Source: an uncultured delta proteobacterium
GTDB taxonomy: Bacteria > Myxococcota > Myxococcia > Myxococcales > Myxococcaceae
Reading direction: 5' to 3'
NCBI GenBank assembly: GCA_963771175.1
Contig: CAVYSY010000022.1
Coordinates: 64,001-128,000, forward strand
Length of the DNA: 64,000 nucleotides
Position 1 is the first letter of the stretch; each line of letters begins with the position of its first letter. The notes below the pieces were generated by a model, which worked only from the letters and a program-made list of their open reading frames with translations, made no database searches and was not told where the DNA came from. The translations under genes were made by a program, and so were the position numbers. Positions 17,783 to 38,786 of the stretch are shown piece by piece.

Positions 17783-18217
17783 TCACAGACGCGCGAAGCC
17801 GGGCGCGTACTGGAAGGGCTCGACCGTCGCTTCGTAGGAGACGATCTCCAGCCCGTGGGCATTCCGGGTCGAGGGTCGTACGAGCCATCGCTGCGTGGCA
17901 TCCAGGGACAGGCGCTTGCTCTTCGCCGCGGGCGGCTCGAACCAGCTCGCCTGCCACCCCACGACGATGCGCACCTCCGCCTCCTCCTCGCGGAAGGTGA
18001 CCACCAGGTCGCTGAGGGTGTGGTTCTCGTCGAAGAAGAGGTGGGTGACGCGGTCGTACCACCGCTTGAAGCTGTCGAAGTCCCGGATGTCACCGTCCGG
18101 GAATTGCATGTGCAGGTCGTGGTCGGCCAGGAAGCTGGAGGTGTGCTCCACCGGCGCGTGCTGATCCAGGGCCAGGTACCACGCCGCGGCGAATCGTTGA
18201 ATCTGGTCGACGGTCAT
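17783..18217 (-). CDS. SnoaL/NTF2-like protein
   Basis: MTVDQIQRFAAAWYLALDQHAP…MQFPDG…WYDRVTHLFFDENH…; size and pattern fit NTF2. Confidence 0.7.
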   Translation of the reverse strand: MTVDQIQRFAAAWYLALDQHAPVEHTSSFLADHDLHMQFPDGDIRDFDSFKRWYDRVTHLFFDENHTLSDLVVTFREEEAEVRIVVGWQASWFEPPAAKSKRLSLDATQRWLVRPSTRNAHGLEIVSYEATVEPFQYAPGFARL

Positions 18218-18495
18218 CGGGGCTTCCTCTCTCGTGTCTCGCTGCGGATGAGAATCCGCGAGACGCCGCGAGTGATGGAGCACCGCCGAGGCGGGGGCTG
18301 GCCCCTCGGCTCCCTGCTTCCTTCCGTCGCTCCGCGCCCGCCGGGGTCCATCACGGCGCGCGCGCACGGGGTCTATTTCAATGCCTGACGGACGAGAGAC
18401 GTCGGGCTCAACCCCATCAGGGATCCGGTGTGGAGGAGGTGGCGGCCCGGTCTCGGCCGAGCGCCCCGGGCACCGGTCCGAGCGAGGAAGCGCGC

Positions 18496-18885
18496 ATGAA
18501 CGTCCGTGAGGTAGTCGACCGGTATTACGCCACCGTCAATTCGGGGGATTGGGACTCCTGGCTGGAGCTCTTCGACGAGCACCTCGTCATGGATGAGCAG
18601 CTCGGCGGCCACATCGAGGGCATCGAGACGCTGCGCGGCCTCGTGGGGGGTCTGAAGCGCATCTACGCGTCCTTCCAGAACACGCCCCGGCACACCGTCA
18701 TCGACGGCAACCAGGCCTGCGTGGTGTCTCGCATCACGGCGGTGACCCCCCGGGGCGAGCCCATCGAGGCCGAGGTCGCCAACTACTTCCTCATCCAGGA
18801 GGGACGAATCATCTACATGGCGAACTTCCACGACAGCCGCCCGTTTGATCCCGCCTTCAGTCCGCGGGGTGGGGAGGGGGCCTGA
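18496..18885 (+). CDS. SnoaL/NTF2-like protein
   Basis: VVDRYYATVNSGDWDSWLELF…VIDGNQACV…NYFLIQEGRIIYMANFHDS. Confidence 0.85.
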   Translation: MNVREVVDRYYATVNSGDWDSWLELFDEHLVMDEQLGGHIEGIETLRGLVGGLKRIYASFQNTPRHTVIDGNQACVVSRITAVTPRGEPIEAEVANYFLIQEGRIIYMANFHDSRPFDPAFSPRGGEGA

Positions 18886-18886
18886 G

Positions 18887-20422
18887 ATGGAAGCTCATGA
18901 CTTCATCGTGGTGGGTGCCGGCTCGGCGGGAGCGGTCATCGCCAGCCGCCTGAGCGAGAACCCCGAGGTCCGGGTGCTGCTGCTGGAGGCGGGAGGCGCC
19001 GGGACCCCGGAGGACGTCTCCAATCCCTCGGCGTGGCCCCGCCTGCTCGGCTCGTCCATCGACTGGGGCTACACCAGCGTGCCCCAGGCGGCACTCGGGG
19101 AGCGGGTCATCCACGAGCCGCGCGGCAAGCTGCTCGGCGGCAGCAGCAACCTCTACATCATGATGCACGTCCGCGGTCACCCCTCGGACTATGACAACTG
19201 GGCCTACCAGGGGTGCCCCGGCTGGTCCTTCCAGGACGTGCTGCCCTACTTCCAGAAGCTGGAGGACCAGGAGGACGACACCAACCCCTGGGCTGGCCGT
19301 GGCGGACCGCTGCCAGTGACCAACGCGAAGCACCACGGGCCGAACCCCACCTCGCAGGCGTTCCTCGATGCGTGCCGGGAGCTGGGCTATCCCGAGACCG
19401 ACGACTTCAACGGCCCCCAGATGGAGGGGGCCGGCTGGCACCACGTCAACATCAAGGATGGCAAACGTCACAGCGTCGCCGAGGCGTATCTGCGACCGGC
19501 GCTGGCTCGGCCCAACCTCACGGTGGTGACGAATGCCCAGGCCACCCGGCTGCTCTTCCGGCACCAGCGCTGCGTCGGCGTGGAGTACCACCGCGAGGGC
19601 AGGCTCGAGAGCGCACACGCCACGGGGGAGGTGATCGTGGCGTGCGGGGCGATCGAGTCACCCAAGCTGCTCCTGCTGTCTGGGATTGGCGATCCCGAGC
19701 AGCTCTGGCCGCTCGACATCCGCGTGCACGCGGCCCTGCCCGGGGTGGGGGAGAACTTCCACAACCACGTGCTGACCGGGGTGATCCGTGAGTGCACCCG
19801 GCCCGTGCCCGCCCGCCCGGCTCAACCTCTCCGAGTCCGCCCTGTTCCACAGGTCCTCTCCGGGCTGGCCCGGCCCCGATCTGCAGATCGCCTTCGTCCA
19901 CGTGCCCTTCGACATCATCGTCGGTCAGGGGCATCCGAACGCGATCAGCATCCTGCCTGGCGTGGTGCGACCGTTGTCGCGCGGCTCGGTCCGTCTGGCC
20001 AGCGCCAATCCCCTGGACAAGCCACTCGTGGATCCCGAACTACCTGTCGGTCGAGGCGGATCTGACACGCCTGATGCAGGGGGTGGAGATCGCCCGGGAG
20101 CTCTTCGCCACGCGGGCATTCTCCGAGTGGGTGGGTTCCGAGCTGAAGCCCGGCCCCGGGGTCAGGACCCGACGAGGAGCTCCGGGCCTTCGTCAGACAG
20201 ACCGCCGACTCGTACCACCACCAGGCCGGCTCCTGCCGGATGGGGCTCGATGCGATGGCGGTCGTGGATCCCCGGCTGCGAGTCCATGGCGTCGAGGGAC
20301 TGCGCGTGGCGGACGCCAGCGTGATGCCAGCCGTCCCCTCCGGCAATTGCCATACGGGCATCGTCATGATCGCCGAGCGGTGCGCCGACATGCTCCTGGC
20401 CGATCACGGCCTCCGGGGTTGA
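18887..20422 (+). CDS. GMC family FAD oxidoreductase (about 3 frameshifts)
   Basis: DFIVVGAGSAG, PRGKLLGGSS, GAIESPKLLLLSGIG, GVGENFHNH, RPLSRGSVRL, YHHQAGSCRMG, GLRVADASVMP…GNCH. Confidence 0.9.
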
Positions 20423-20466: not shown

Positions 20467-20901
20467 ATGGCAACGCCTCGATTCTTCCATCTCGCACTGG
20501 CATGTCGGGATCCCCTGAACCTCGAGCGCTTCTACACGGAGCACTTCGGCTTCAGGCGGGCCCGGGTCGTGCGCCTGGGGGACACGCAGATCGTGTTCCT
20601 CAAGTCGGACACCGTCTACCTGGAGCTCTTCGAGGCCCGGGAGCCCGCGCCGGTTGCTCCGGCGGGCGAGGACGGGCCCTGGTATCCCGGTGTGCGTCAC
20701 CTCGCGTTCTCCGTCGACGATGTCGACGCGAAGCTGGCCGAGCTGGGCCCCGCCGCGCGCGTGACGCTGATGCCCCTGGACTTCGATGACTTCATCCCGG
20801 GCTGGCGCTCCGCCTGGGTGGCCGATCCGGAGGGCAACATCCTCGAGCTCACCCAGGGCTACGAGGATGAGATGGCGCCCCCGCCCATGCCAGGCGCCTG
20901 A
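20467..20901 (+). CDS. VOC/glyoxalase family protein
   Basis: HLALAC…ERFYTEHFGF, YLELF, HLAFSVDDVD, ADPEGNILEL; AAGGAGG RBS. Confidence 0.9.
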   Translation: MATPRFFHLALACRDPLNLERFYTEHFGFRRARVVRLGDTQIVFLKSDTVYLELFEAREPAPVAPAGEDGPWYPGVRHLAFSVDDVDAKLAELGPAARVTLMPLDFDDFIPGWRSAWVADPEGNILELTQGYEDEMAPPPMPGA

Positions 20902-20997: not shown

Positions 20998-22950
20998 ATG
21001 AACAATCACTATCGCATGACCGTGCTCCAGGGGACCGTCAGTTCCGTGGAGCCACAGCAGCTCCGGTGCTCGCTTCACCTGCGGAGCGGGGACACCGTGA
21101 CGCTTCACTTCAGCACCGAGACGACGTTCTCGGTGCTCACGAATCTGGATGGGGTCTCCCAGGATCGGGTGCCGGAGGTGAAGGGGTTCGAGGGCAGCGA
21201 GCTGGCCCGCAAGGTGGCCCGCTACCTGCGGCCCCAGGACACCGTCTTCGTCCGGGGCATCCTGACCGAGAACGCCGGAGAGACGCGCTTCGACGTACGG
21301 GCCGTGTGGCTGATGCACTCCGAGCCACGGCGGTTCCTCTTCGAGGACAAGCAGTGGTGCCTGACCCAGATCCGGCTCATGGCCGATTCCTGGCTGGACG
21401 CCCTTTTCGGTGACGCGCGCAGCTACACCGAGGACGACATCTCCCGGAACTACCGGACGAACCTCAACCTGTACGGCGGGCCCACGGACGACAACCTCCA
21501 GGCCATGCCCACGCTCGCCCGCCTCATCTACGGGCTGTCCTCGGCCTACATGCTCACGGGAGATCACCGTTACAGGAAGGCGGCCGCGGCGGCCATCCAG
21601 TTCCAGCGCTCCTCCTTCCGCATCTTCAGCCACGACGGGCAGTACTGCCTGTGGGCCTACGGTCGCCGCAAGAAGGTGAATGGCTCCGTGACGAGCTTCG
21701 CCTCGGAGAGCGCCGACGACTTCAACGCCATCGCCCTCTACGAGCAGATCTACGCCCTGGCGGGGCTCACGCAGTACTTCCGCTGCACGGGGGATCCGGC
21801 CGCGCTGGAGGACGTCCGCCACACGGTGGCCATGTTCAACGCGCTCTTCCTGGACCTCAAGCGCGTCAACCCCGACTTCCCGGGGCTGGATGGCTACTTC
21901 AGCCACCTGGATCCGGCCAACCTGCGGCCGGACTCGCCCGCGCTCGGGACCCGCCAGCTCGAGAAGAACTGGAACTCGATCGGCGACCACATCCCGGCCT
22001 ACCTGGTCAATCTGATCCTCGCCCTCGATCCATTGCCGCAGGGTGCCGATGAGGGGATCGCCGACTTCCTCCGGGTCTGCAAGGAGATGCTCGATCGGAC
22101 CGCCCGGCTGATCATCGAGAAGTTCCCGGATCCGGAGTCCGTGTACGTGAACGAGCGCTTCCACGCGGACTGGACGCCCAACCACGAGTGGGGCTGGCAG
22201 CAGAACCGGGCCGTGGTGGGCCACAACTACAAGATCGCCTGGCAACTGCCGCGCATCGCCAGTTTCTGGTTCTCCGAGGGGCGTCATGACGAAGCCCAGC
22301 GTGCGCTCCAGGTGGCCGAGCGGCTGGCCAGGGCCATGATCACCCATGGCGCCGATCTGGTCCGCGGGGGCTGCTTCGATGCCGTCGAGCGCCACCCCTC
22401 CAATGGTCAGTCGATCGAGTTCGCCTGGGGCTGCACCAAGGACTTCTGGCAGCAGGAGCAGGCCATCCTCGCCAACCTGATCCTCTACGGGCACACGCGG
22501 GATCCCGAGTTCCTGGACCAGGCCCGCGCCGCGGCGGCGTTCTGGAACCTGTTCTTCCTGGACCGGGATCGCCAGGGCATCTTCTTCCGCACCACGGAGG
22601 ATGGGCTGCCCATCGTCGAGGGGAGCTACGCCAACAAGGGAGGCTACGCCATCGCCGGCTACCACTCCTTCGAGCTGAACTTCCTGGCCCACATCTACAC
22701 GCGGGCCTTCGTCGCGCCAGCGGGGACCGAGGACGCCAGCTTCTGCCTGTACTTCTACCCCTTGCGCCAGTGCGGGCTGCGCTCCATCAACGTGGCGCCG
22801 GACTTCTTCAAGCCCGGCTCCATCGAGATCGCCAGCATCACCGTCAATGGCAGGCGCCGATCGGATGTCGATCCCAAGCGGTTCCAGATCCCTCTCCAGA
22901 CCGGTGATTTCGGCTCCGAGATCATCGTCCAGTTCCGGAGGAAGTCATGA
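20998..22950 (+). CDS. AGE family epimerase/isomerase (N-acylglucosamine 2-epimerase-like) with extra N- and C-terminal domains
   Basis: ARLIYGLSSAY, KNWNSIGDH, VNERFHADW, VVGHNYKIAW, KDFWQQEQA, GYHSFEL: His residues typical of the (alpha/alpha)6 AGE fold. Confidence 0.8.
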   Translation: MNNHYRMTVLQGTVSSVEPQQLRCSLHLRSGDTVTLHFSTETTFSVLTNLDGVSQDRVPEVKGFEGSELARKVARYLRPQDTVFVRGILTENAGETRFDVRAVWLMHSEPRRFLFEDKQWCLTQIRLMADSWLDALFGDARSYTEDDISRNYRTNLNLYGGPTDDNLQAMPTLARLIYGLSSAYMLTGDHRYRKAAAAAIQFQRSSFRIFSHDGQYCLWAYGRRKKVNGSVTSFASESADDFNAIALYEQIYALAGLTQYFRCTGDPAALEDVRHTVAMFNALFLDLKRVNPDFPGLDGYFSHLDPANLRPDSPALGTRQLEKNWNSIGDHIPAYLVNLILALDPLPQGADEGIADFLRVCKEMLDRTARLIIEKFPDPESVYVNERFHADWTPNHEWGWQQNRAVVGHNYKIAWQLPRIASFWFSEGRHDEAQRALQVAERLARAMITHGADLVRGGCFDAVERHPSNGQSIEFAWGCTKDFWQQEQAILANLILYGHTRDPEFLDQARAAAAFWNLFFLDRDRQGIFFRTTEDGLPIVEGSYANKGGYAIAGYHSFELNFLAHIYTRAFVAPAGTEDASFCLYFYPLRQCGLRSINVAPDFFKPGSIEIASITVNGRRRSDVDPKRFQIPLQTGDFGSEIIVQFRRKS

Positions 22951-24505
22951 GTCGTCTGCCCTTGCAGGGGAAGAAGATCGCCGTCCTCGTCGAGAGTCAG
23001 TTCATCCCCGTGGAGCTCTCCGAGTACCGGAAGCGGTTCGAGGAGGATGGGGCCACCGTCCATTTCCTGGCCAATCTGTATGGGAATTCCTCGCTGACCC
23101 TCGTGAGCGAGGTCGAGGAGCCCGGCCAGACGCCCGAGCTGCTGACGGTCGACCTCGACGTCCGCCAGGTGAAGCCGGAGGACTACGCGGCCGTCATCAT
23201 GGCGGCCAACTACACGAGCGTCCGGCTCCGTCACTTCATTCCGCCCTCCGGGCCCGATGGCAAGCCGGTGCCGATCACCCCGGAGATGGTCCGCTCGTCG
23301 CCGGCGGTCCAGTTCTTCGGCCGTGCCATGCGCGACCCGAGAATCATCAAGGGGGCGCTGTGCCACGGGCTCTGGCTGCTGACGCCCACCCCGGAGCTGC
23401 TCGCGGGGCGCAGGGTCATCTGCCACGAGGTCGTGCTGGCCGACATCACCAACGCCGGGGGCCTCTACACGCCGGATCCCTCGGGCGTGGTGGTGGATGA
23501 GGATCTGGTGACGGGGCGCTCGTACCACGAGGTCTCGGTGCTCATCGATCGCATCAAGGAGCTCATCGTGGCCGGGGAGGAGCAGGCGGCCTCGCTCCCC
23601 ACGCCTGTCAGCCCGACGGTGCCGGAAGCGCCGCGAGGGCAGGGGAGCAAGCGGCGCATCCTGATCGTCCTCTCCAGCTACGGCTACTGGAGCGAGGAGC
23701 TCGTCGGTCCACTCGAGGTGTTCGACGCCATGGGCTACGAGGTCGAGTTCGCCACGCCCGACGGCCGGCGTCCGAGGCCCCTGCCTCCGAGCCTGAATCC
23801 GGACTACATCGATCCGCCCCTGGGCCGCTCGGTGACCACACCGGAGATGGCTCGCAAGGGGCGCGAGCTCGTCCCGCTCCGGGCGCCTCGACTCCCCGCT
23901 GAACCTCTCGGCGCTGCTGCCCGAGCGGCCGTACTTCAGCCAGCCCGTGCTGGTGCGTGCGCTCGAGGCCTACCACCGTGAGCGTCGAGCGGGCCCTGCG
24001 CGACTTCGAGCGGTTCGACGCGCTGCTGCTGGTGGGCGGCAGCGGACCCATCGTCGACATGGCCAACAACCAGCGCCTGCACGACCTGATCCTCGGCTTC
24101 CTGCGGCTGGGCAAGCCGATCGCCGCGGAGTGCTACGGCGTCACCTGCCTGGCCTTCGCGCGGGACATGGAGGACCGGCGCAGCATCCTGAGGAACAAGC
24201 ACGTCACCGGCCACTGCCTGGAGTACGACTACAAGGACGGCACCGGCTTCCTGGGCACCGACTTCAACATGGGCCCGCCGCCGTACCCGCTCGAGTACAT
24301 CCTCCGCGACGCGACCGCGCCGGAGGGCCAGTACCACGGCAACTTCGGGAAGGAGACGTCGGTCATCGTCGACTACCCGTTCATCACCGGCCGTTCCACC
24401 CCGGACTCCATCCTGACCGGCCAGAAGCTCGTCGAGGTGCTCGAGAACGGACTGCGCCAGTGGGGCTGGAACGGCGCCAACGACGGACAGGGGAGCCACA
24501 TATGA
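22947..24505 (+). CDS. Tandem DJ-1/PfpI plus type-1 glutamine amidotransferase-like fusion (2 frameshifts at 23870-23985)
   Basis: Domain 1 KKIAVLVESQFIPVE…GALCHG…LVTGRS; domain 2 ILIVLSSYGYWSEEL…LVGGSGP…AAECYGV…FITGRS. Confidence 0.8.
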
Positions 24506-26207
24506 GACGGACTGGAGGTATCGCCATCCTCGAGCAGTTCGTCGCCGATGGCGCGAAGTACATGTTCGGCAATCCGGGCACCGTCGAGCAGGGCTTCCTG
24601 GACGCCATGCGCTGCGTGCCCGGGCTCGAATACGTGCTCGCGCTCCAGGAGACCGTGGCCGTGGCCATGGCGGACGGCTACGCCCGGGCGACGCGCCGGC
24701 CCGCCTTCGTGCAGCTCCACAGCAGTGTCGGGCTCGGCAATGGGATTGGCATGCTCTACCAGGCGAAGCGCGGCAACTCCCCGCTGGTGGTGCTCACGGG
24801 GGAGGCCGGGGTCGCCTACGACGCCATGGACGCGCAGATGGCCTGCGACCTGGTCGCCATGGCCCGGCCGGTCACCAAGTGGGCCACGCGCGTTCTCGAT
24901 CCCGGCTCGGTGCTGCGGGTCCTTCGGCGCGCCATCAAGATCGCCTCGACACCGCCCATGGGGCCCGTCTTCGTCGCGCTGCCCATGGACGTGCTCGATG
25001 CGCCGAACGACGAGTCGGTCATCCCCACGCCGCGGCTCGACACCCGGGTCGCACCGCGGCCCGAGGAGGTGAGGGTGCTGGCCCAGATGCTCGTGGCGGC
25101 CGAGCGGCCCCTGCTCATCATCGGTGACGGCGTGGCGGCCTCGGACGCCCAGGCGGAGCTGACGCGGGTGGCCGAGCTGCTCGGCGCCGAGGTGTGGGGC
25201 GCCAACAGCTCCGAGGTGAACATGGATGCGCTCCATCCCCTGTTCCACGGCCTGCTGGGGCACATGTTCGGCAAGGAAAGCACGGCGGCCGTCTCCCAGG
25301 CGGACGCGGTGCTGATTGTCGGTACCTACGTGTTCCCCGAGGTCTTCCCCTCGCTGTCTGGGGTGTTCCGTCCCGGCGCCCGGGTCGTCCACGTCGACCT
25401 GGATGCGTACGAGATCGCCAAGAACTTCCCGGTCGACCTGGGCCTGGTGGCGGACCCGAAGCTGACCCTCGGGGCGGTGGCGGAGGTGCTGGCCGGCCTC
25501 ATGACGCCAGCGCAGCGGGAGGCCGCGGCCCGGCGTCTGCGAAGCGCCGAGGAGCGCCAGCACATGAGAGCGAGAGCTGGCCGCCCGGGCTGGGACGGGC
25601 TCGTGCGACAGGGGGACGGACGTGCCATCCCTCTTCCTGCGGGAGCTGGCGAGGCGGGTGGCGGAATGAGGCCATCATCTTCGACGAGGCGCTGACGAGC
25701 GCGCCGCTGGTGAACCAGTACCTGCCGGCGCGCAAGCCGGGGCACTTCTTCCAGACTCGTGGCGGCTCCCTGGGCGTGGGGATTCCCGGAGCCCTGGGGC
25801 TCAAGCTCGCCCATCCGGACAAGACCGTCATCGGGTTCACCGGGGATGGCGCGAGCATGTACACCATCCAGGCCCTCTGGACGGCGGTGCGCCACGACAT
25901 CGGCGCCAAGTTCGTGGTCTGCAACAACGGGGGCTACAGGCTGCTCGACGTCAATATCCAGGAGTACTGGCGGGAGCGGGGCATCCCGGAGCATGCCTTC
26001 CCTGGCTCCTTCAGCCTGTCGTACCCGCCCCTGCGCTTCGTGGACATCGCGCGCTCCCTGGGTGTACCGGCCGCACGGGTGGGCACTCCGGAGTCGATCG
26101 GCCCCGCGCTGGAGCTGGCCCTGTCGACCCCCGGGCCCTTCCTCATCGATTGGATGCTCCCGAGGTCCTTCCCGGGAGCGGATGTCGACCACCGCTGCGG
26201 GCAGTGA
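24502..26207 (+). CDS. Thiamine-diphosphate-dependent enzyme (benzoylformate decarboxylase-like; frameshifts at 25570-25670)
   Basis: FGNPGTVEQ, LQETVAVAMADGYAR, QLHSSVGLGN, GGSLGVGIPGALG, GDGASMYTIQALW…NNGGY. Confidence 0.9.
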
Positions 26208-26284
26208 GGGGTTCTTCAACGTGGGACACAGGGGCCAGGCCGGGGAGACCCGGGCCTGGCCCTTTCCATTTGGAGGGTGTTCGC

Positions 26285-26737: not shown

Positions 26738-26882
26738 GTGTCGGTTCTCCTTGGGAGTGCATGACGACTCCCGCCAGCCGCGGCCTTCACATGGGAGTGG
26801 TGCTGAATGAAAAAGCGGTGGCGAGAGCTGGTTGCCCAACTCCGCCACCGCGAAATGGCACTACTCAGGGCCGCTTTTCCCG

Positions 26883-27104
26883 TTACGCTCCGGTGAGCTG
26901 CTTCATCAGGCGGAACACGTCCACGCTGGCCCAGTGCTCCACGATCTGTCCGCCTGAAAGACGCACAATGGTCATCCCCGTATAAGACACTTTCTTCCCG
27001 GTCGCTGGGACGTCGGCGAAGACGCCCGTGTGCGTGCAGTTCCACGTCCAGCGATGCACGACCTTGTCCGCCGCCGCGACCTTTTCATCGATGACCAGAT
27101 TCAT
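26883..27104 (-). pseudogene. 5'-truncated SnoaL-like ester cyclase fragment
   Basis: Only the C-terminal half is present: DKVVHRWTWNCTHTGVFADVPATGKKVSYTGMTIVRLSGGQIVEHW. Confidence 0.7.
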
Positions 27105-28674: not shown

Positions 28675-28717
28675 GGACTGGATGAGTTACGGGGCCTGCA
28701 TATGTGACGCCCTCATC

Positions 28718-29447: not shown

Positions 29448-29472
29448 GAGATGGAGCCCGGGGCACCTCCGC

Positions 29473-30274: not shown

Positions 30275-30302
30275 GACGAGCTCCTCACCGGGACAGGCCG
30301 GC

Positions 30303-31361
30303 TCAGGTAAATGCCAGGTAGCCCGCGTAGGACAGGTCGGAGACGAGGGTCCCCTTGGGGGCTCCTGTCCTTCCATCGAAGCGCCGTATGCTCCCGGTGC
30401 CCGGAGCGAAGTTGGTGAGGAAAGGATCCTCGATGGTGAAGCTGCCCACGTACAGGTCGCCGTCCGGCCCATAGGCGAGCCCCACCGGGAAGGGCACCTC
30501 GGCGAACGTGCCGATCAATTGCTTCCGCTCGACGTCATAGCGCTGGATGCGGCTGGCGAAGTGCTCGGGCACCAGCAGGCTTCCGTCCGGGTGGAAGACG
30601 AGGGAGAAGGGAATCTTCACCCGCTCGACGACCACGCCCAGGAAGGCTCCGGTCCTTCCGTCCAGGCGCGTGATGTAATCCGACTCGGCGATGAACGCCT
30701 GGGGAATCGTCGGAGAGGCATATTGGAGCGTTGACGAGACGTACAGGTTCTCGTCCGGGCCCCACACCAGCGCGAACGGGGATCTCACCTCGGCGAAGGT
30801 GTCGACGCGGGTGCCGGTGCGAAGATCGTAACGATCGATGGTGTCCGGCCCGAAGCCGATGTTCGCATTGAGTGACGGCGCATTCGCGACATACAGGAGC
30901 CCATCCGGACCGATCGCACCGGTGTGGGGTGTGATCAGGACACCTCGGGCCTTGTCATTCGGCTGTGTGATGATGCGCAGCCTGTTGCCCGTGGCGATGT
31001 CGTGCTGCACGAAGGCATTTCCGCCAGGGCTGAACACGAGCAGCTCACGGTCGGGGCTGATTGCGAGGCCCGCCGTGGTGTTCTGCATGAAGGGCACGGG
31101 CAGGGGTTCCGGTCCCAGCGTCGTCTGGGAGAAGTCCGCGAAGGTTCCCAGGGATTCGCCCGTCCCGGCCTTGAAGCTCTCGATGGTCCTGGCGAGGAAC
31201 GTGGTGACGAACAGCGTGGACTGGTCGATGTCCTGGCGCGAATCATCGTCATCTCCGCAGCCCGCCAGCAACCGCCCCGCCGCGAGTGTGAGCGCACCTC
31301 CCGTGAGGGCTCTGAGGACCTCGCGGCGTGGTATCGTGGATGTCTCGTCTTTGAGTCGCAT
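30303..31361 (-). CDS. Tat-exported lipoprotein with NHL/Vgb-like beta-propeller repeats
   Basis: PRREVL twin-arginine and LAGC lipobox; repeats GLAISPD, IGPDGLLYV, WGPDENLYV, FHPDGSL, YGPDGDLYV. Confidence 0.8.
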   Translation of the reverse strand: MRLKDETSTIPRREVLRALTGGALTLAAGRLLAGCGDDDDSRQDIDQSTLFVTTFLARTIESFKAGTGESLGTFADFSQTTLGPEPLPVPFMQNTTAGLAISPDRELLVFSPGGNAFVQHDIATGNRLRIITQPNDKARGVLITPHTGAIGPDGLLYVANAPSLNANIGFGPDTIDRYDLRTGTRVDTFAEVRSPFALVWGPDENLYVSSTLQYASPTIPQAFIAESDYITRLDGRTGAFLGVVVERVKIPFSLVFHPDGSLLVPEHFASRIQRYDVERKQLIGTFAEVPFPVGLAYGPDGDLYVGSFTIEDPFLTNFAPGTGSIRRFDGRTGAPKGTLVSDLSYAGYLAFT

Positions 31362-31586
31362 GGAATGCCGACGATTATACCGGCGCCGGCTGTCTTCAAG
31401 ATGCCGGGCTGCACGCGAGGCCTGAAGTGAGCATTGGCGGGATGTCAGCCTGTTCGGGGGAGGACCTCCTCCTTCCCCGGGGCGCCATTGTATGGCGGGC
31501 ACGAAAAGGGCAGGGGGCCCTCCCTAGGTGTTGGGAGTGCCCCCTGCCCGTTGTGGATGCGGCCGGCTCGCCGAGAAGTGGAAGCC

Positions 31587-32897
31587 TCAGCCGAGCGCGC
31601 CGAGCTGGGCCAGCAGGCCCAGATCGTTTTCGTTTACCCAGATTTCGGCGATCTTGCCGCCCGAGAAGACGAAGATGTCGACTCCCTGATCCCTCACCCT
31701 CCGGTACGTGGGAGGCATCCCGAGGAACGGGCCCGCGTGCGTGCCCTCGACGTACCAGCGAGCGGCGGCCCTGTTGCCCTCCGCCACCTGGCGCTCCACG
31801 GTGAACTGGATGTCTGGGAGGCCGGTGCGCAGACCCGTCACGAAGGCACGCATCCCCTCCCTGCCACGGATCGGCTCGGGCAGCGTCGGGATGTGGAACG
31901 AGAACCGCTCGGCGATGAGCTCGTCGATGACCTCCAGCCGGCCCTGGCTCATCAGCTCGTCGAAGTACCGGCCAATGAGCTGGAGGTTCTCCTCCCGGGT
32001 CGTCCCGGGCGGGGGCACAGGGTTCCCCATCGCGGGCAGGCCACCGAGCTGGGTGAGCAGCCCCAACGTGTCCTCATTGATGCGCGCCTCGACGAACCTG
32101 CCATCCTCGATGCGCAGCCAACTCATGCCGTCGATCACGAACGAGCGCTCCCGCGCGGGGATGTCGCCCCGGAGGGTCTCGAGGGGCGTGCCGGTGTGGG
32201 TGCCGCGGGCGGTCCAGTGGGCGACCACCGTGTCTCCCTGGGCCACCAGGTGCTCGAGGGAGAAGGTCAGGTCGGGGAACGCATCCCGGAGCATCTTGAC
32301 GAGCCCCTTGAACTCCTGGCCGCGGTAGGGCTCGGAGTGGGTGGGGTTGGTGAACTCGAACTTCTCGGAGAAGTAGTGGTCGACGAACGAGAGGTCCCCT
32401 TCGCTCATCAGCTCGGAGTAGTAGCGGCGGGTGAGCTGCTTGTTCCGTTCCTCGACGGCGCGGCGCGCCTCGGCCTCGCGGAGGGAGGTGAGCAGAGGAG
32501 TCCCGTACTCGCAGATGCGGACGCGCTTGAACCTGCCGTCTTCATCGAGCTCCACGAACCACAGCTCCGCGCCACGGACCGTCTCGTGGGTCGCCGGGAC
32601 GCCCAGGAACTCCCGGGCATGGGTGCCCTCGTAGAGGAGGTCGAGCGAGGCGGTCGTGTCGTCCGTCACCAGATGGGCGATGTCGACCCTGACGTCGGGA
32701 AAGGCCTGGGTCCATTCATGAACGGCATCGTGGAAGAGCTGGTAGCCCTGGCTTCTGCCCAGCTCGGCCGGAACGCCCGGCGCCTCCAGCACGAGGTCCG
32801 GAGCGCAGAGCCCGGTCATGATGGAGCCGATGTTCTTCTGGTTCAGGCCGATCTCGACGAACTTCTTCGCCGCGCTGATGTTCTTCTCCAAGGACAT
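31587..32897 (-). CDS. Protein with three tandem SnoaL-like ester cyclase domains
   Basis: Three repeats of xENx…AFPD…GTH…G.P.T…DGR/GGK in 436 aa. Confidence 0.9.
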   Translation of the reverse strand: MSLEKNISAAKKFVEIGLNQKNIGSIMTGLCAPDLVLEAPGVPAELGRSQGYQLFHDAVHEWTQAFPDVRVDIAHLVTDDTTASLDLLYEGTHAREFLGVPATHETVRGAELWFVELDEDGRFKRVRICEYGTPLLTSLREAEARRAVEERNKQLTRRYYSELMSEGDLSFVDHYFSEKFEFTNPTHSEPYRGQEFKGLVKMLRDAFPDLTFSLEHLVAQGDTVVAHWTARGTHTGTPLETLRGDIPARERSFVIDGMSWLRIEDGRFVEARINEDTLGLLTQLGGLPAMGNPVPPPGTTREENLQLIGRYFDELMSQGRLEVIDELIAERFSFHIPTLPEPIRGREGMRAFVTGLRTGLPDIQFTVERQVAEGNRAAARWYVEGTHAGPFLGMPPTYRRVRDQGVDIFVFSGGKIAEIWVNENDLGLLAQLGALG

Positions 32898-32898
32898 G

Positions 32899-33717
32899 TC
32901 AGGTCTCCTCTTCCTGGATGAATGATTCGATTGCCGTCGCGAGCGCCTCCGGCACCTCCAATCCCGGGAAGTGGCTGGTGGCCTCCAGCTTCCTCACCTG
33001 GAACCAGGGGTGCTCGGTGGCGAAGGCTTCCTGGTCGGCCACCATGGCCGGGCTGCTCGTCTGGGTGTACAGGTGCAGGATCGGAGGGGCGGGCCGCATC
33101 CCGGCCATGGCCTCGAGTGGGCTCTTCCACCTGGCGTAGCCGGCTCCAATCTCGCGGCCCGAGCGCATCCACATCGCGGCGCCGTAGGCATTCATTTCCT
33201 CACGCACGAGGCGGATGACCTCGGGGTGGTCCACGCCCTTCAGCCAGAGGTCGAAGAGCTGAGCCCGGGCCTGCTTCCAGGTCGCGGCGCCGGCGAGGGC
33301 CTCCACCAGGGCCAGATAGGGCGCGGGGGGCTCCACGAGCATCCAGTCGGTCAGCACGATCCTGGGGACGCGGGAGCCCAGCCTTCGCCGCAGCTCGAGC
33401 GCCACCCACCCGGCGTGGGAGCAGGAGACGGGGATGACCTGCCGCACGCCACTGGCCGCGATGACGGCGAGGGCGTCTTCCACCAACTCCGCGGCTCCGA
33501 AGTCTCTCGCCGGAGCTTCCGACTGGCCGTGGCCACGCCAGTCCAGCGTGAGCACCCGCCGGTGGGCGGCGCTCCGCAGGGGGGTCTCACCAAAGGCCGA
33601 GCGGCTGGCACACCAGGGAGGCAGGAACAGCAAGGCCGGTTCGCCCTGTCCATGGCTGCCATAGCGGATGCGCACCCCTCCCGGTGCAAGCGCTTCCAAT
33701 TCCTCTTTCCTCATCAT
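32899..33717 (-). CDS. Alpha/beta-hydrolase-fold protein related to cofactor-independent dioxygenases Hod/Qdo/AqdC
   Basis: LPPWC, DWRGHG, PVSCSHAGW, LTDWM, LFDLWL, WMRSGREI, HPWF, SHFP; these parallel the Hod motifs as I recall them. Confidence 0.75.
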   Translation of the reverse strand: MMRKEELEALAPGGVRIRYGSHGQGEPALLFLPPWCASRSAFGETPLRSAAHRRVLTLDWRGHGQSEAPARDFGAAELVEDALAVIAASGVRQVIPVSCSHAGWVALELRRRLGSRVPRIVLTDWMLVEPPAPYLALVEALAGAATWKQARAQLFDLWLKGVDHPEVIRLVREEMNAYGAAMWMRSGREIGAGYARWKSPLEAMAGMRPAPPILHLYTQTSSPAMVADQEAFATEHPWFQVRKLEATSHFPGLEVPEALATAIESFIQEEET

Positions 33718-33735
33718 GTCCTCCCTCATTTCCTC

Positions 33736-35322
33736 TCATCCTTGCTGGAGCAGGCTTTGCGCGACGATGAGCCCCGACCCACCGCCCAGCCCGAGTCCTG
33801 GATGGGTGGCCGCGCCAATCATGTAGAGCTGGGGAATGGCGGTGCGGTGTCCCTGCTGCGCGGCCATGGGCCGGAGCAGGTAGCTCTGGGCGAGGGCGTG
33901 CGAGCCACTGAACGGGTCTCCGTACTTCCAGTTCGGGTTGTAGCGGTGCAGGTCCAGGGGACTGACCACCGCGTGCGCCAGGATGGCGCCCTCCAGGTTG
34001 GGGATGTGCCGGCAGGCGGTGGCGATCATGCGATCGGCGAAGCGCTGCTTCAGATCTTCCGTCCAGGTGCCATCGCCGATGTCGATGGTGCCGGCGGCAT
34101 CGCCCACCACCTGAAAGGGGACGTCCAGTCCCTGAAGCACCATCACGGCCTTGCCCGCGGGGGCGCGGGAAGGATCGAGCAGGCTCGGTGTCCCCACGCC
34201 GATCACCGGCTCGGCGGGGAGCAGGCGGCGGGTGGTCTCGTTGTAGTTGCGCGACACGCCGTCCATGCCGCGGGTGAGGTGGGTATAGACGACCTTGTCG
34301 AGCCGCTCGTCGTGCCAGCGAGGCGGCTCCTTCAGCGCCAGGTGGACGAAGAAGACGGAGTGGCCGTAGCGGAACCGGGTGGCCTGCTGCCGGACGCGTG
34401 GCGGGACTTCGCTGACGTCCGCCAGCAACTCCTGGTGGAGTTGGTCCGGATTGGTGGTGGCAATCACCGCCCGCCGGGCGCGGTACTCCTCGCCCGTCGC
34501 CGTCCGCACTCCCACCGCCTTGCCTCCCTCCACGAGGATGCGGTGGACCGGCGTGTTCGTCTGGACCGTGCCGCCCTGGTCGCGGATCAGCTGCACGAAG
34601 GCCCGGGCGAGCATCTCGGCCCCGCCCTCCGCCACGAGCTGCCCCGCCGACTGGAGCGCCAGGAGGGTGAGCTTCATCGAGAGCGCACCGTTCGCATCCT
34701 CCGGCCCGCGCCCCGCGTGCAGGATCCACGGAGCGAGCAGCCCTCGCCATGCCTCGGAGGAGAAGGTGGTCTCCAGCAAATCTCTCGCGCTCAGCAGGAA
34801 CTCGCCAGCGAACGGAGACAGACTCCTGCCATCCTCGGCGAGCATCAGCCGCCGGAACAGCTCCGCGGCGCGTGGGGAGTCCAGCTCCGAGCCCAGCAAC
34901 TCGAAGACCGCTTCCGCATGGGGGCCAAACCCTTGCAGGAGCTGCGCCCAGGCCGCGCCGTCACCCGGAGCGAGACGATCGGCTTCGGCCATGTTGGCCT
35001 CGAGGCTCGTGGAGAGCACCGCCGCCTGGCCATCTGGCATCGAGACCGCGGTGGGCAGCGAGGTGGGGATGAGCTTCAGACCCCGCTCGGCGAGCGCACT
35101 TCCGAAAACGGCATTGGCCTGGGAGAGTGCGAAGAGGATGAAGTACCCGGCATAGAGATCATGGTGGAAGCCCGGCAGGGTCAGTTCCTCGGTGCGAACC
35201 CCTCCCCCGGGACGCGCGTTCTTCTCCAGCAGCAACACGCTCCACCCGGCGCGAGTCAGGTAGGCAGCGCAGACGAGCGCATTGGGTCCACTGCCAATGA
35301 TGATTGCATCATGGGTTTGCAT
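33736..35322 (-). CDS. Phytoene desaturase-like FAD-dependent oxidoreductase
   Basis: IIIGSGPNAL…LEKNARPGGG, PGFHHD, GGAEML, LYMIGAATHPGLGLGGGSG. Confidence 0.88.
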   Translation of the reverse strand: MQTHDAIIIGSGPNALVCAAYLTRAGWSVLLLEKNARPGGGVRTEELTLPGFHHDLYAGYFILFALSQANAVFGSALAERGLKLIPTSLPTAVSMPDGQAAVLSTSLEANMAEADRLAPGDGAAWAQLLQGFGPHAEAVFELLGSELDSPRAAELFRRLMLAEDGRSLSPFAGEFLLSARDLLETTFSSEAWRGLLAPWILHAGRGPEDANGALSMKLTLLALQSAGQLVAEGGAEMLARAFVQLIRDQGGTVQTNTPVHRILVEGGKAVGVRTATGEEYRARRAVIATTNPDQLHQELLADVSEVPPRVRQQATRFRYGHSVFFVHLALKEPPRWHDERLDKVVYTHLTRGMDGVSRNYNETTRRLLPAEPVIGVGTPSLLDPSRAPAGKAVMVLQGLDVPFQVVGDAAGTIDIGDGTWTEDLKQRFADRMIATACRHIPNLEGAILAHAVVSPLDLHRYNPNWKYGDPFSGSHALAQSYLLRPMAAQQGHRTAIPQLYMIGAATHPGLGLGGGSGLIVAQSLLQQG

Positions 35323-35364
35323 TGATTCCTCCCAGGGAGGGGTTCACGTCCGGGGTGGAGGGGC

Positions 35365-35781
35365 TCAGGGCTTGAGCGCTTCCGCGATGTTCGTGAACCC
35401 AGCCCAGGTGCGCTTGATCTTGCCGTCGACGATGTGGGAGTAGTGGATGCCAGTGATTTCCGAATAGCGCCCGGTGGGGGCGAAGCCGGCGAAGGTGCCC
35501 TGGTGCGTTCCCGTCATCAGCATCTTGGTCGCCACCACGTCGCCCTCGGCCACCATCTCCTGGACGATGTATTTGATGTCGGGGAAGGCCTTGCGGAAGG
35601 AGATCACCCTCTGGCGGAAGGCTTCGCGCCCGCTCTGGACCGGAGCACCCCCCGCGAGCGGCGGGGCGTCGAACTCGTAGTCCTCGTGGTAGAGCTCGTC
35701 GATCATCTCCAGACGGTGCTGGGTCAGCAGGACACCGAAGAGCGTCCGGATGAGCTGCTTGTTTTCCTCTGGGGTCGTCAT
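35365..35781 (-). CDS. SnoaL-like ester cyclase
   Basis: EENKQLIR, AFPDI, AEGDVV, TGTHQGTFAGFAPTG. Confidence 0.9.
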   Translation of the reverse strand: MTTPEENKQLIRTLFGVLLTQHRLEMIDELYHEDYEFDAPPLAGGAPVQSGREAFRQRVISFRKAFPDIKYIVQEMVAEGDVVATKMLMTGTHQGTFAGFAPTGRYSEITGIHYSHIVDGKIKRTWAGFTNIAEALKP

Positions 35782-35814
35782 GCGGCTTTCTCCTTGGGGG
35801 TTGTTCGACTGTCT

Positions 35815-36234
35815 TCAGGATTGGAGCTGCGCCAGCAGGGGCGTACCGTACGAGCAGAAGCGGAGACGCCGGATGCGTCCCTCGGACAGCTCGGCGAAGC
35901 AGAGCTGGGTCGAGGTGATTCTGTTGCCGGTGGGGGTGAGACCGGCGAACGGCCCCGTGTGGGTGCCATGGAGCACGTAGTCGACCGACACGTTCTCCCC
36001 ATCGCCCAACAGGTAATGGCTCTCGTAGTTCAGGTCGGGGAAGGCCGCGTGGAACGCGGTCACGCCTCGTTTGAATGCGTCCAGGCTGTTCTGTCGGGCC
36101 ACCTCGCTCGGGATCACCGGCGACTCGATGGAGAAGTCAGTCGTGCAGAGTGAATCGAGGACCTCCACCCTTCCGCCGTTCATCACCTCCGCGAAGAGCC
36201 GGCGGATGACATCCTTGTTGTCTTCGAGATTCAT
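35815..36234 (-). CDS. SnoaL-like ester cyclase
   Basis: EDNKDVIRR, AFPDL, HGTHTGPFAGLTPTG; its ICEYGTPLL-like tail (FCSYGTPLL) matches domain 1 of the triple-SnoaL protein. Confidence 0.9.
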   Translation of the reverse strand: MNLEDNKDVIRRLFAEVMNGGRVEVLDSLCTTDFSIESPVIPSEVARQNSLDAFKRGVTAFHAAFPDLNYESHYLLGDGENVSVDYVLHGTHTGPFAGLTPTGNRITSTQLCFAELSEGRIRRLRFCSYGTPLLAQLQS

Positions 36235-36336
36235 GTGTCCTCAGCTGCTCCGTCTTCGTGGGTATTTAAAAGACCCCGGAACTCACGGTTGTGAGGGACG
36301 CGGCTGGAGCCCGTGGCACGTTCCAGCCGCTGGCGC

Positions 36337-38786
36337 TCATTCCTTGCGGAAGACGACGAGTCCCCGGGCCGGAAGGACGACGCGCAGCCCGTTCCCCCGA
36401 GGGGAGAGCGTCGCCTCCGAGGTTTCCCACATTGCTCCCGCCATACCGCTCGGCGTCGCTGTTGAAGATCTCCCTCCAACCCCTCGCGTGGGACGAGGGG
36501 ATCGGGAGCTCATATCCCTCGGAGAGGGGCCGCTCGTTGAGGCTGGCGATGATGAGGAGCTCCTCCTCCTGGCTCTGGCGCCTGAAGGCGAGGACGCGGT
36601 TGACATCGTGGGTGTAGAGGAGCTCGATGTCGCGCGAGCGCAGCGCTTCGTGGGTCAGGCGCAAGCGGATGAGCTCCTGGTAGAAGCGGAAGAGGTTCCG
36701 TCCCCGGCCCGCGCGCAACCCTCGGAGATCCTCCCGGTTGTTCAGGAAGGTGTCGTACCGGTAATCCCTGGCGGCGCCGACCTCCTCTCCCATGAAGAAC
36801 ATGGGCGTGCCCGCGGAGAGCACCGAGAGGCCGAGGACCGTGCGGCAGCGCGCCTCGGCGGCCTGGAGCACCTCGCCCTGGAGCTCCACGGCGTTGGCGG
36901 CGATGACAATCGTCCTGGCCGTGCCGTCTCCGTTCCCGGCCTCGTCATGGGATGAGTGGTAGACGACCTTCCGCTGCCCTGTCCGCGCCAGCACCTGCGC
37001 GAAGGTGTTCATCGCCAGTGGCTGGCCGTCCGCCTTCGCCGCGGTCCAGAGCAGCTTGGCGAACTCCCTCCCGCGTGTCGGGTCTCCGATGAGGTGGTGG
37101 TGGTGCTCGGCGTACCACGCGGCATCGAACCCCAGGCCGCCCTCCGCGTCGGACGCGGTCACCGCGTCCCAGTCGGAGTGATCCTCCGCCATGAGCATCG
37201 ACACCCGGGCGGATGAGCCTCAGGGTGCGGCTCCATTCGCGCAGGAACCTGGCCCCGAGGATGTTGGCGCGGGAGGCCTCCCGCCCATTGGCGTGGAGCA
37301 CGTTGTAGCTGTGGATGCACGTGGTCTGATCCACGCGGAACCCATCCACATGGAACTCCTCCATCAGGACGGCCGCGCTGCTGATGAACATGGCGCGGAC
37401 CTGCTCCCGGTTGAAAGCGGGGGCATATCCGGTGGACTGGTTGTCGATGTACCCGCCGTGTCCGGGGGTGGCCGTCGAGCCGGGGCTGGCCGCCACCCGC
37501 TCGTAATCCGGGTAGTCCTCGGGGCGCCCCTCGTAGAAGTAATAGAGATTGTCCGGGTGCGAGTTGGAGTCATACATCCACTCCGCCCTGTCGGCATCCG
37601 GGTGGTAGTGGTTGTAGACGACGTCCATGATGACGGCGATCCCCCGCCGGTGGCACTCGCGGATGAAGTGCTTGAGCTGGTCGCGACCGCCGCCCGCGTA
37701 CTCGATGGCGAGGTAGTGCGTGGTGGCGTAGCCCCAGTTTGGCAGCCCACCGAACTCGGACATCGGCAGCAGCTCGATGGCATTCACCCCGAGCTCCTCG
37801 AGGTAGTCGAGCAGCGCCATCGCGTCCTCCAGCGTGCCCGCTCCGTCCTTGCCGAAGCCGAGCGCCCCGACATGGAGCTCGTAGATGACGAGATCTTCGA
37901 CACGGGAGGGGACGGGCCGCTCGGCGCGGTACTCGTCACGCCAGAACTCCTCCTCGGAGAGGAACTCCCGCTCGGGCCATCGAGGCTCGGAGAAGTGCTT
38001 CGTCACCTGGTCGGGGTCGACCACCACCGAGCAGCTCACGGTGGCATTCAGTCCCTCTCGTCTCCCCGTGTAGGGCCTCCCCCCGGGGTTGAAGGTGCCC
38101 CGTCCGAGCTGACAGCGCGAGTAGAGATCCGTCCGATAGACGATCCGACCGTCCGCCAGGGTGAGCCTGAACATGTAGGGTTGGAACCGGAGCCGCTCGA
38201 ACTCCAGGGCTCCGGGGCCATCGACCTCCGTTTCCCAGACACCGCCGTCCTGGCGGACCATCGGGAGGACCGGGAGGAGGGGAGAGATGCCGGTGCCGTC
38301 GTCCGCGATGTAGCCGCTCTCCTGGGTCCCGAACACCACCTCGGCCTTGCTCGCGTGGGGTGCCCAGACGGCGAAGCGCGCCAGGGGCATGGAGGTGTCC
38401 GGGCGGAAGTACTTCTGTGCGCCGAGGTTGCGCCCCTGGGTGAGGTGATAGCGCTCTCGCGAGGGTCCGGGTCCGAGCACGAAGGAGCGGGTCCGCCTGC
38501 GTGAGGAGGGATCATCGACCTCGGTGGGGATGGCCCACAGGTCTGTTCCGGCGGGACCGTCCACGATGACGCCCCACTCGAACCGTGTGCCGAGCTGGGA
38601 CTCGTCGAAGGAGACGGTTGCCCGGAAGCAGGGACAGCCGTCCTCTCCCGTGGCGGGTTCCATGGGATGGGTCGACCACTGGTCGGACAGGTGGCCGCGT
38701 CCGTCCCAACTGCCGACGAGACGTGCGTTGCGAAGGACTTGTCGCTTCAGTCCGGTGGAGTACTCGAAATGGACAGTGATGGGCAT
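36337..38786 (-). CDS. GH13 alpha-amylase family enzyme (GlgB/TreZ-like; frameshifts near 37200 and 36400)
   Basis: FAVWAPHA, VIYELHVG, LGVNAIELLP, NWGY, DVVYNHY, DGFRVD (nucleophile), AEDH (acid/base), SHDEAGN, PMFFMGEE. Confidence 0.88.

Follow-up and report, generated by a model that had tools for sequence, protein, structure and literature searches.

A conserved glucan-linked gene cluster around a variant AGE-fold enzyme in the Myxococcaceae, related to the enzyme core of the cyanobacterial icfG cluster

The region analyzed here lies on contig C22 (CAVYSY010000022.1) of a 9.8-Mb, 82% complete assembly from an uncultured member of the Myxococcaceae, for which the nearest named record was from an Archangium sp. 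(~92% DNA identity). Within the 64,000-nucleotide stretch under study (the window), a set of genes around an AGE-superfamily enzyme (20998..22950, plus strand, 650 amino acids (aa)) was found to be a real cluster that recurs in about a dozen phyla, and its core appears to be a sister clade of the core of the Synechocystis icfG cluster. The most plausible, although tentative, reading of the predicted enzymes is that glycogen would be turned into dicarbonyls or small aldehydes, and these into an oxygen heterocycle modified by tailoring enzymes, a dedicated metabolite.

Gene content and conservation of the cluster

A Pfam scan of 46 open reading frames (ORFs) between 9622 and 47142 of the window recovered all of the families, and their order, that an earlier note on this DNA had named between 17783 and the start of the GH13 gene at 38786. 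It likewise bore out the two convergent operons described there, one on each strand, and revealed no polyketide synthase, non-ribosomal peptide synthetase or sugar-transporter family among the ORFs scanned. The plus operon comprises genes for a SnoaL/NTF2-fold protein (18496..18885, 129 aa, Pfam SnoaL_2), a GMC flavin oxidoreductase of the alcohol-oxidase type (18887..20422, 510 aa after discounting three extra bases), a VOC/glyoxalase-fold protein (20467..20901, 144 aa), the AGE-fold enzyme (identified by Pfam, structure model and alignment), a double DJ-1/PfpI protein (22947..24505, 518 aa after discounting two extra bases) and a thiamin diphosphate (ThDP) enzyme related to benzoylformate decarboxylase (24502..26207, 567 aa after discounting two extra bases). 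The genes are tightly spaced, as claimed, with gaps of 1, 96, -4 and -4 bases at four plus-strand junctions and of 102, 33, 42, 6 and 1 bases in the minus operon from the GH13 gene to that of a triple SnoaL protein. The earlier gene list stands as to families and order and needs correction with regard to the split reading frames and the mosaic middle (both treated below) and in one further point: the gene at 17783..18217 (minus strand, start codon read, divergent from the plus operon) encodes an extra SnoaL/NTF2-fold protein (144 aa, Pfam SnoaL_4) that belongs to the cluster and, like its plus-strand neighbour, to the tailoring layer. The AGE-fold enzyme, both DJ-1 domains, the VOC protein and both left-hand SnoaL proteins each gave a single tblastn match in the 9.8-Mb genome, which, together with the recurrence of the set elsewhere, makes the grouping more than a chance one. 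The G+C content of the region is slightly low (0.655-0.68 versus 0.694).

AGE relatives were sought in one genome per species, and neighbourhoods were counted for the best 80 of the 175 loci found. Many of the 80 are cut by contig ends; 42 have at least 9 kb on both sides. Within 10 kb of the AGE gene, DJ-1 domain 1 was present in 73 of the 80 loci, GH13 in 61, DJ-1 domain 2 in 59, the ThDP enzyme in 49, the GMC oxidoreductase in 32, the VOC protein in 25, and the left-hand SnoaL proteins in 24 (17783..18217) and 19 (18496..18885). The co-occurrence search suggested in the earlier note thus returned the complete six-family set (AGE, DJ-1, ThDP, VOC, GMC and GH13) within 10 kb in 18/80 AGE loci, distributed over alpha- and gammaproteobacteria, cyanobacteria and myxobacteria. 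The 42 loci with full flanks gave the counts DJ-1 39, GH13 38, second DJ-1 30, ThDP 26, GMC 19, VOC 16 and SnoaL 15 and 14, and the partners are nested: the ThDP gene was accompanied by DJ-1 in 25/26 cases, GMC by ThDP in 18/19 and VOC by GMC in 16/16. Such nested layers fit an ordered pathway. In the class (301 genomes searched), 14 genomes had a match to the GH13 profile and 12 to the AGE profile, 11 of them to both. The AGE gene is patchily distributed, being found in 2/17 congeners, in 20/201 genomes of the phylum of G041 and on 18 plasmid records.

Other copies of the cluster include further partners, namely EthD (17 of the 80 loci), 4-OT (16), muconolactone isomerase (10), CMD (4) and AKR (3) proteins as well as a P450. 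AGE-DJ-1 fusions occur among the top AGE homologues, and CMD-EthD-VOC fusions of 961-1206 aa lie beside icfG-type clusters in three cyanobacterial loci (L138:15940-18825, L139:3438-6596 and L140:12944-16564), two of them including SnoaL domains and one AtaL. Both types of fusion fit a hand-over of unstable intermediates between the predicted enzymes.

A variant layer of EthD, Nif11-like genes, two GMC genes and alpha/beta hydrolases replaces VOC and SnoaL in L072, L075, L078, L090 and L109. Neighbours of a signalling or conflict type recur: LuxR, histidine kinase, CHAT-CHASE2, FecR and Pepco genes lie upstream of the AGE gene in L024, L039, L045 and L047, SLOG cluster 3 was seen in L059-L061, and L020 and L022 have genes for large WD40 proteins, of which one carries a patatin domain.

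Integrity of the reading frames

As assembled, the GMC, double DJ-1, ThDP and GH13 genes are each spread over several frames. Every frame-breaking difference from the homologous loci L018 and L023 is one extra base in the window, and discounting three bases in the GMC gene and two in each of the others restores proteins of 510, 518, 567 and 815 aa, compared with 515, 518, 563 and 859 aa in relatives. Contigs from independent runs lack the extra bases at 19815, 20037, 23871, 23986, 25662, 36413 and 37200, that is, at least seven of the nine in core genes; positions 20172 and 25570 were not among the matches listed. The rpoB gene of the same assembly (L101, G000:C25:96327-102356) lies in three frames, with five single extra bases relative to three congeners, and since this essential gene is split in the same manner, frameshifts anywhere in the assembly are suspect. 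The frame breaks of the four core genes are, by these comparisons, assembly errors. The split state of these genes would superficially suit a decaying, frameshifted island in the host genome, a view that is highly improbable given that all breaks are single extra bases. A pseudogene interpretation was rejected, since the extra bases are missing from the independent contigs, rpoB is equally affected and all frames can be restored.

Kinship with the icfG cluster

A phosphorylation switch has made the icfG cluster known since the 1990s. In Synechocystis PCC 6803, the genes slr1852-slr1862 encode an N-acetylglucosamine 2-epimerase, an isoamylase, two anti-sigma antagonists, a phosphatase and a kinase, according to the available portions of PMC8670252 and PMC12329169; those of PMC3276265, PMC8385029 and PMC5714215 only list the icfG genes. 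The cyanobacterial locus L132 follows the published order, with genes for a SnoaL-like protein (so assigned by the protein atlas), CMD, DJ-1, an AGE-fold protein of 607 aa, STAS, GlgX, STAS, PP2C and an anti-sigma factor, and was matched to Slr1855 by gene order rather than by a named sequence. Its AGE-fold protein is 37% identical to that of the window, icfG-type AGE proteins in general being 35-39% identical to it and carrying the same invariant motifs. In a quick tree of 82 rows, the icfG-type proteins are split by a long branch (SH-aLRT 100) from the clade of the window protein, which includes 12 phylum labels and in which the window sequence groups with Pyxidicoccus and Corallococcus.

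In both clusters, an AGE gene of the Slr1855 kind adjoins DJ-1 and GH13 genes. The window cluster differs in that its GH13 protein has 815 aa and is not of the GlgX type, that it lacks CMD, and that STAS, anti-sigma kinase and PP2C genes are replaced by an adjoining extracytoplasmic function (ECF) sigma factor and a Ser/Thr kinase. STAS, anti-sigma and PP2C proteins were absent from the window ORFs scanned and from all 80 loci when single Streptomyces queries were used at an E value of 1e-5; the same queries match icfG-type loci. Plasmid-borne icf-type copies from Streptomyces and Deinococcus have the same ThDP and second DJ-1 genes as the window, the Deinococcus copy also GMC, VOC and NTF2 genes. 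The window cluster would thus resemble the icfG enzyme core without the GlgX-type protein and the phosphorylation switch. The pathway had been put forward as undescribed; this holds for its chemistry, as no paper assigning a reaction to this enzyme set was found in the searched, mostly open-access literature, and requires amendment for its genes, whose core appears as a sister clade of a known cluster. In one congener (G006), the icfG-type form, which includes GlgX, STAS and anti-sigma genes, takes the place of the window clade (L219), so that both forms exist in one genus.

The kinship with icfG also bears on the idea of a carbon valve, a non-phosphorylating breakdown of glycogen to small acids or rearranged sugars that would serve as overflow or signal tied to carbon status. 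Lactate or glycolate would be reached by isomerization, retro-aldol cleavage and a reaction of the glyoxalase III type. Mutants in the icfG operon show growth defects on glucose and at low carbon in the accessible text of PMC12329169. The phenotypes published there are, however, those of phosphatase and STAS genes, which occur in none of the 80 loci of the window clade, and the many SnoaL, VOC and tautomerase genes would be left without explanation, so that a valve is considered improbable.

The AGE-fold enzyme

The model of the AGE-fold enzyme (pLDDT 91.6) consists of an N-terminal beta domain, an (alpha/alpha)6 barrel and a C-terminal beta domain. Its best fold matches were mannose isomerase and cellobiose 2-epimerase (Z 39-41), these scores referring to the whole model and not to the two beta domains separately; the N-terminal domain had no usable match in the protein atlas. 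Compared with the superfamily (cellobiose 2-epimerase, mannose isomerase, glucose 2-epimerase, YihS), the barrel is kept (Z 34-41, root-mean-square deviation 2.3-3.5 Å), as are the motifs with Arg, Tyr, Asn, three His and Trp, whereas the window protein is ~250 residues longer, owing to its N- and C-terminal beta domains, and only 13-19% identical. Site residues were mapped by motif against alignments with PDB entries and a canonical AGE. R175, Y252, N326, H331, H409, K412, W484, H556 and E559 are invariant in 61/61 rows; H409 and H556 are presumably the two catalytic histidines, and the Arg, Tyr, Asn, remaining His and Trp residues are taken to have the roles they have in canonical enzymes. 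Two positions depart from the canonical pattern. Lys412, three residues after the first catalytic His, stands in all 61 rows where a canonical AGE has the Glu of GH..E, giving GH..K, and Glu559 replaces the Arg after the second one, turning H..R into H..E. Judged from these alignments, the exchange may be a harmless charge swap or may have created a new catalytic lysine. The fold has one precedent for C-C cleavage: AprG, a transaldolase of apramycin biosynthesis that cleaves a two-carbon unit from an aldohexose derivative (as described in the available part of PMC13707489), has a similar barrel with 11-12% identity and was likened to the window protein by fold score alone (Z 28.0).

The GH13 protein and the link to alpha-glucans

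The GH13 gene (36337..38786, minus strand, 815 aa after discounting two extra bases) encodes a protein, identified by Pfam, that carries CBM48 as well as an additional beta domain at its N terminus. Its catalytic Asp/Glu/Asp triad (D524, E572, D652) is invariant in 35/35 relatives, and its best fold matches were branching enzymes with 18-23% identity. Scanned as two frame-split pieces of the window, it scored 129 of 539 bits with the NCBIfam model for TreZ and 99 of 577 bits with that for GlgB, and it is 25% identical to the icfG-type GlgX of L132; it is presumably distant from GlgB, TreZ and GlgX alike. Among the 80 loci of the window's AGE clade, 57 have a large GH13 gene and two have GlgX, with other alpha-amylase-like genes in L033 and L068. 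The GH13 partner was drawn from three or four lineages with mutual identities of 22-25% or less. As it has been replaced among such lineages, a generic glucan-cutting activity seems to be needed, and as it was nevertheless retained, the alpha-glucan link proposed in the earlier note emerges strengthened. The host glgA and glgC genes scored above their family cut-offs, and the icf-type Streptomyces plasmid copy adjoins glgE, glgB and maltokinase genes. GH13 genes lacking an AGE neighbour were located in one genus (L216:10357-12735, L217:3162-5540 and L218:4588-7098), next to MarR, chaperone or ferritin genes.

Alternatively, the GH13 protein could be an alpha-glucan lyase that releases 1,5-anhydrofructose, with the other enzymes copying the fungal route to ascopyrone or microthecin. 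AGE enzymes need a reducing sugar, which speaks against such a lyase, as does the descent of the GH13 partner from several lineages, in which the activity would have had to originate repeatedly. The intact triad for a covalent intermediate is in its favour, as alpha-glucan lyases share this type of intermediate (PMC12441222, available text), and so is GlgX2 of Synechocystis, which has no debranching activity according to the accessible part of 10.1101/2022.11.21.517384. Altogether, a lyase is very unlikely. The fungal and red-algal anhydrofructose pathway nevertheless offers an analogy to the proposed one: a small molecule is derived from glycogen without a polyketide synthase or non-ribosomal peptide synthetase, by dehydration and tautomerization chemistry. 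It leads from glycogen to ascopyrone or microthecin via a GH31 lyase (PMC12441222, same portion), whereas the enzymes here belong to other families, Pfam having identified no GH31 family among the ORFs of the cluster. A 4-O-glucosylated keto sugar is reported to decompose to an ascopyrone under mild conditions (PMC8056936, available excerpt).

Active sites of the partner enzymes

In DJ-1 domain 1, Glu16, Glu23, Cys139 and His140 are present in 31/31 sequences and match the glyoxalase III set. Domain 2 has a Glu-Glu/Cys-Tyr arrangement whose Cys-Tyr pair, found in 29-30 of 31 sequences, departs from Cys-His. The GMC protein is closest to alcohol and choline oxidases among PDB entries. It contains the His/Asn pair typical of alcohol oxidases, as His447 and Asn489, and each of these two residues recurs in 21/22 relatives. 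The VOC protein has His8, Glu53, His78 and Glu127 at metal-ligand-like motifs, and in an alignment of 18 rows, at least 90% of the rows retain His8 and Glu53.

The family profile of the ThDP enzyme had its best PDB match in 6A50, the engineered glycolaldehyde synthase GALS (E 2e-100), and a full-length relative scored 327 of 493 bits with NCBIfam, which is below the cut-off. Ser/Thr27, Glu50 and His73, found in 31/31 sequences, correspond to Ser26, Glu47 and His70 of benzoylformate decarboxylase. His281 of the latter is missing, its position being taken by Val in 30/31 and by Leu in 1/31 sequences; Phe282 is invariant (31/31), and Leu or Ile occupies the position of Ala460. GALS (H281V, Q282F, A460M; PDB 6A50) likewise combines Val-Phe at 281-282 with a bulky side chain at 460, whereas positions 86-87 and 109-110 match only loosely. 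The H281V and Q282F exchanges are credited with widening the pore and not with substrate choice in the available text of PMC6435721.

The substrate ring of HOD has a 3-hydroxy-4-oxo motif, as do maltol-type pyranones. The HOD-like protein of the window (32899..33729, minus strand), an alpha/beta-hydrolase-fold protein and predicted cofactor-free dioxygenase, had HOD as its best PDB sequence match (E 1e-50, 38% identity). Its His253 and Asp128 align with His251 and Asp126 of HOD, so that the His/Asp dyad and the Ser-His-x-Gly-Trp elbow of HOD, QDO and AqdC are kept (dyad comparison based on the available part of PMC3961685), whereas His38 of HOD is replaced by Ala and no quinoline-degradation genes lie nearby. 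A HOD-like gene together with many tautomerase-type partners fits a cyclic enolone. A paralogue of this gene, 54% identical, is present elsewhere in the genome (G000:C28 103287-104054).

Mosaic structure of the region between the two operons

In L018, L020 and L081, the ends of the ThDP and GH13 genes adjoin, with window position 26266 joining 36348. X1 and X2 run contigs carry 28752-36347 and skip exactly 26128-28751, a segment bounded by an 80-nt direct repeat of the 3' end of the ThDP gene. L207 has yet another gene set in the same slot. Since the contents of the ThDP/GH13 slot differ among L018/L020/L081, X1/X2 and L207, the slot evidently takes up cassettes, and by these contig comparisons 26128-28751 is a strain-level insertion at the ThDP/GH13 junction. 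It contains genes for a 150-aa protein with a signal-peptide-like start (26285-26737, minus strand) and a membrane protein (28258-28674, minus strand), neither of which was found in any of 213 loci, a relic of the 3' end of a GH13 gene (27203-27263) and an SDR gene (27396-28220, plus strand) whose matches in other loci were only 27-34% identical. These genes are probably not part of the pathway. A paralogue of the 150-aa gene (66% identical) lies at G000:C40 187432-187896.

The genes from 28899 to 31361 are common to X1 and X2, and their membership in the cluster is uncertain. They encode a DUF1772/anthrone oxygenase protein (28899-29447, plus strand), a lipoprotein-like protein of 266 aa (29473-30274, minus strand) and an NHL-repeat lipoprotein-like protein (30303-31361, minus strand). 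The first two stood beside no other cluster copy (0/213 loci), and the third had one 32% match beside an icfG-type AGE gene. The SDR, DUF1772 and exported proteins placed between the operons by the earlier note are hence present, with the qualification that the SDR, lipoprotein and membrane genes at 26128-28751 belong to the insertion.

The minus-strand block next to the GH13 gene forms an accessory layer. In addition to the HOD-like gene, it contains the triple SnoaL gene (31587..32897, PF07366, 436 aa), a flavin adenine dinucleotide (FAD) oxidoreductase gene of the phytoene-desaturase/CrtO-like family that scored below all cut-offs (33736..35322, 528 aa) and a pair of PF07366 SnoaL genes (35365-35781 and 35815-36234; 138 and 139 aa). 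The metagenome loci L172 and L173 are one lineage (identical identities) and contain, in a single run, genes for the second DJ-1, ThDP and SnoaL proteins, both paired SnoaLs (66% and 72% identical), a double SnoaL protein that is 52% identical to the triple SnoaL of the window, and the FAD enzyme (80%). The L172 run continues with 4-OT, P450, HOD-like (60%) and GMC genes and ends short of any AGE gene; a further relative of the triple SnoaL (47%) is found in L136. The possibility that everything in the 10 kb separating the ThDP gene from the GH13 gene is unrelated was rejected for the minus-strand block, which recurs in the L172 operon. A search of 300 other genomes of the class, with four candidates scored per genome, gave no match to the FAD gene at E 1e-80.

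The demonstrably mosaic middle, and the catabolic nature of the nearest characterized relatives (benzoylformate decarboxylase, HOD/AqdC, 4-OT, muconolactone isomerase), would suit two unrelated units, a glucan module and a route for the degradation of an external aromatic or heterocycle, e.g. a quinolone. This explanation is hardly likely, however, as the glucan core is joined by nested ThDP, GMC, VOC and SnoaL genes in different phyla and in both AGE clades, no ring-hydroxylating oxygenase or uptake system is conserved, and the ThDP enzyme is devoid of the benzoylformate decarboxylase His281.

Proposed pathway and its main rival

The proposed conversion of glycogen to an oxygen heterocycle would begin with the GH13 protein, which would cut glycogen and supply free reducing ends. 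The AGE-fold enzyme, likely the committed step, would enolize the reducing sugar via its two histidines and, unlike ordinary epimerases, carry out an elimination or retro-aldol cleavage to a deoxy-osone or to C2-C4 aldehydes. The DJ-1 protein, often fused to AGE, could take over the 2-oxoaldehyde directly and convert it to a hydroxy acid, and the ThDP enzyme might join or cleave small hydroxy-aldehydes rather than decarboxylate an aromatic keto acid. The GMC protein would then oxidize an alcohol, and the VOC and SnoaL proteins would tautomerize, dehydrate and cyclize the product, whose 3-hydroxy-4-oxo ring could finally be modified or opened by the accessory block (SnoaLs, FAD oxidoreductase and HOD-like protein). 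The product would likely serve as an inducible secondary metabolite, with a purpose similar to that of the anhydrofructose pathway in fungi. In a more far-reaching and rather doubtful version, an AGE-fold lyase or retro-aldolase with the new invariant lysine would act on glycogen ends and, together with a natural small-aldehyde carboligase and swappable cassettes of SnoaL, VOC and oxidase genes, yield an enolone-type defence or signal molecule, representative of a widespread, scaffold-free bacterial class.

Several observations weigh against a dedicated metabolite formed in this way. DJ-1 and VOC folds are textbook detoxifiers, and they stand at the core of the cluster. The Lys/Glu swap in the AGE-fold enzyme may simply keep a salt bridge, and AprG is the only C-C-cleaving precedent for the fold, its Z score of 28.0 tying with that of a putative glycoside hydrolase (27.9) and lying far below those of the epimerases. 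The HOD-like gene was found in 1/80 and the FAD gene in 0/80 AGE loci, their block joins the operon in one other lineage only (L172/L173), and three remoter FAD relatives (50-55% identical) have no cluster genes nearby. The 80 loci were selected via AGE similarity and include kin, so that the neighbourhood counts are not independent; the GH13 gene occurs without AGE, among unrelated neighbours, in 3/14 genomes; and no exporter is conserved across the 80 loci. Moreover, deletion of glgX2 in Synechocystis gave no phenotype under the conditions tested, according to the accessible part of 10.1101/2022.11.21.517384.

The main rival is damage control, in which the enzymes would trim or repair altered glucan ends and destroy spontaneously formed dicarbonyls, furans and pyranones under stress, with no dedicated product. 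It would agree with a minimal core of DJ-1, AGE and GH13, joined by CMD in the icfG form, with the partner-switching, stress-type module of the icf-type copies, with the known degradative contexts of HOD-like, GMC and AKR enzymes, and with the missing exporter. Expression data point both ways: in published table rows, slr1853 and slr1854 are up about twofold under ethanol, whereas the available published data have the Synechocystis operon repressed, not induced, by salt. Product diversification is better suited than housekeeping repair by the carboligase-like ThDP pocket, by the very variable tailoring sets and by the large fusions, and most congeners searched lack the AGE gene (present in 2/17). 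On balance, damage control is regarded as unlikely, though it deserves serious attention.

Flanking genes and other features

Upstream of the GH13 gene, Pfam identified an ECF sigma factor (38851..39522, minus strand) that is a candidate local regulator. It adjoins the cluster in 2/80 loci, both from Myxococcaceae, and likewise in L209, L212 and L214. Next to it lies a response regulator gene (39660-40073, plus strand), followed by a gene for a Ser/Thr kinase with AAA and TPR domains (40079-43663, minus strand, 1194 aa, Pfam). Kinases 27-31% identical to the latter are encoded near the cluster in L207, L210, L211, L212 and L215; the family is large in the host genome (36 matches), and the linkage may be due to chance.

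The left edge is marked by a two-way terminator-like hairpin (17726..17756, both strands), a weak call given that the scan yielded 7 sites versus 6.7 in shuffled sequences. Beyond it are genes for a thermolysin-family M4 peptidase (15810-17693, plus strand) and a dicarboxylate symporter (14181-15470, minus strand), both found in 0/80 loci, and for a 762-aa protein (11837-14125, minus strand) whose weak matches to Nal1 C-terminal and S1/P1 nuclease families, an unusual pairing, did not reach the Pfam cut-offs. The window contained no tRNA or Rfam match, and a promoter scan gave no sigma-70 promoter-like site.

Significance

By dropping the icfG switch and swapping the GH13 partner, the clade represented by the window sets the enzyme core apart as the unit that is conserved, and within it the AGE-fold protein stands out as the step of foremost interest. 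If this protein is a lyase or retro-aldolase, the orphan enzymes Slr1855 and GlgX2 would be explained as well. A natural ThDP enzyme that resembles an engineered glycolaldehyde synthase would be of interest to one-carbon biocatalysis. If the cluster does make a metabolite from glycogen, it would define a class of biosynthetic systems that lack a scaffold synthase and extend over about a dozen phyla.

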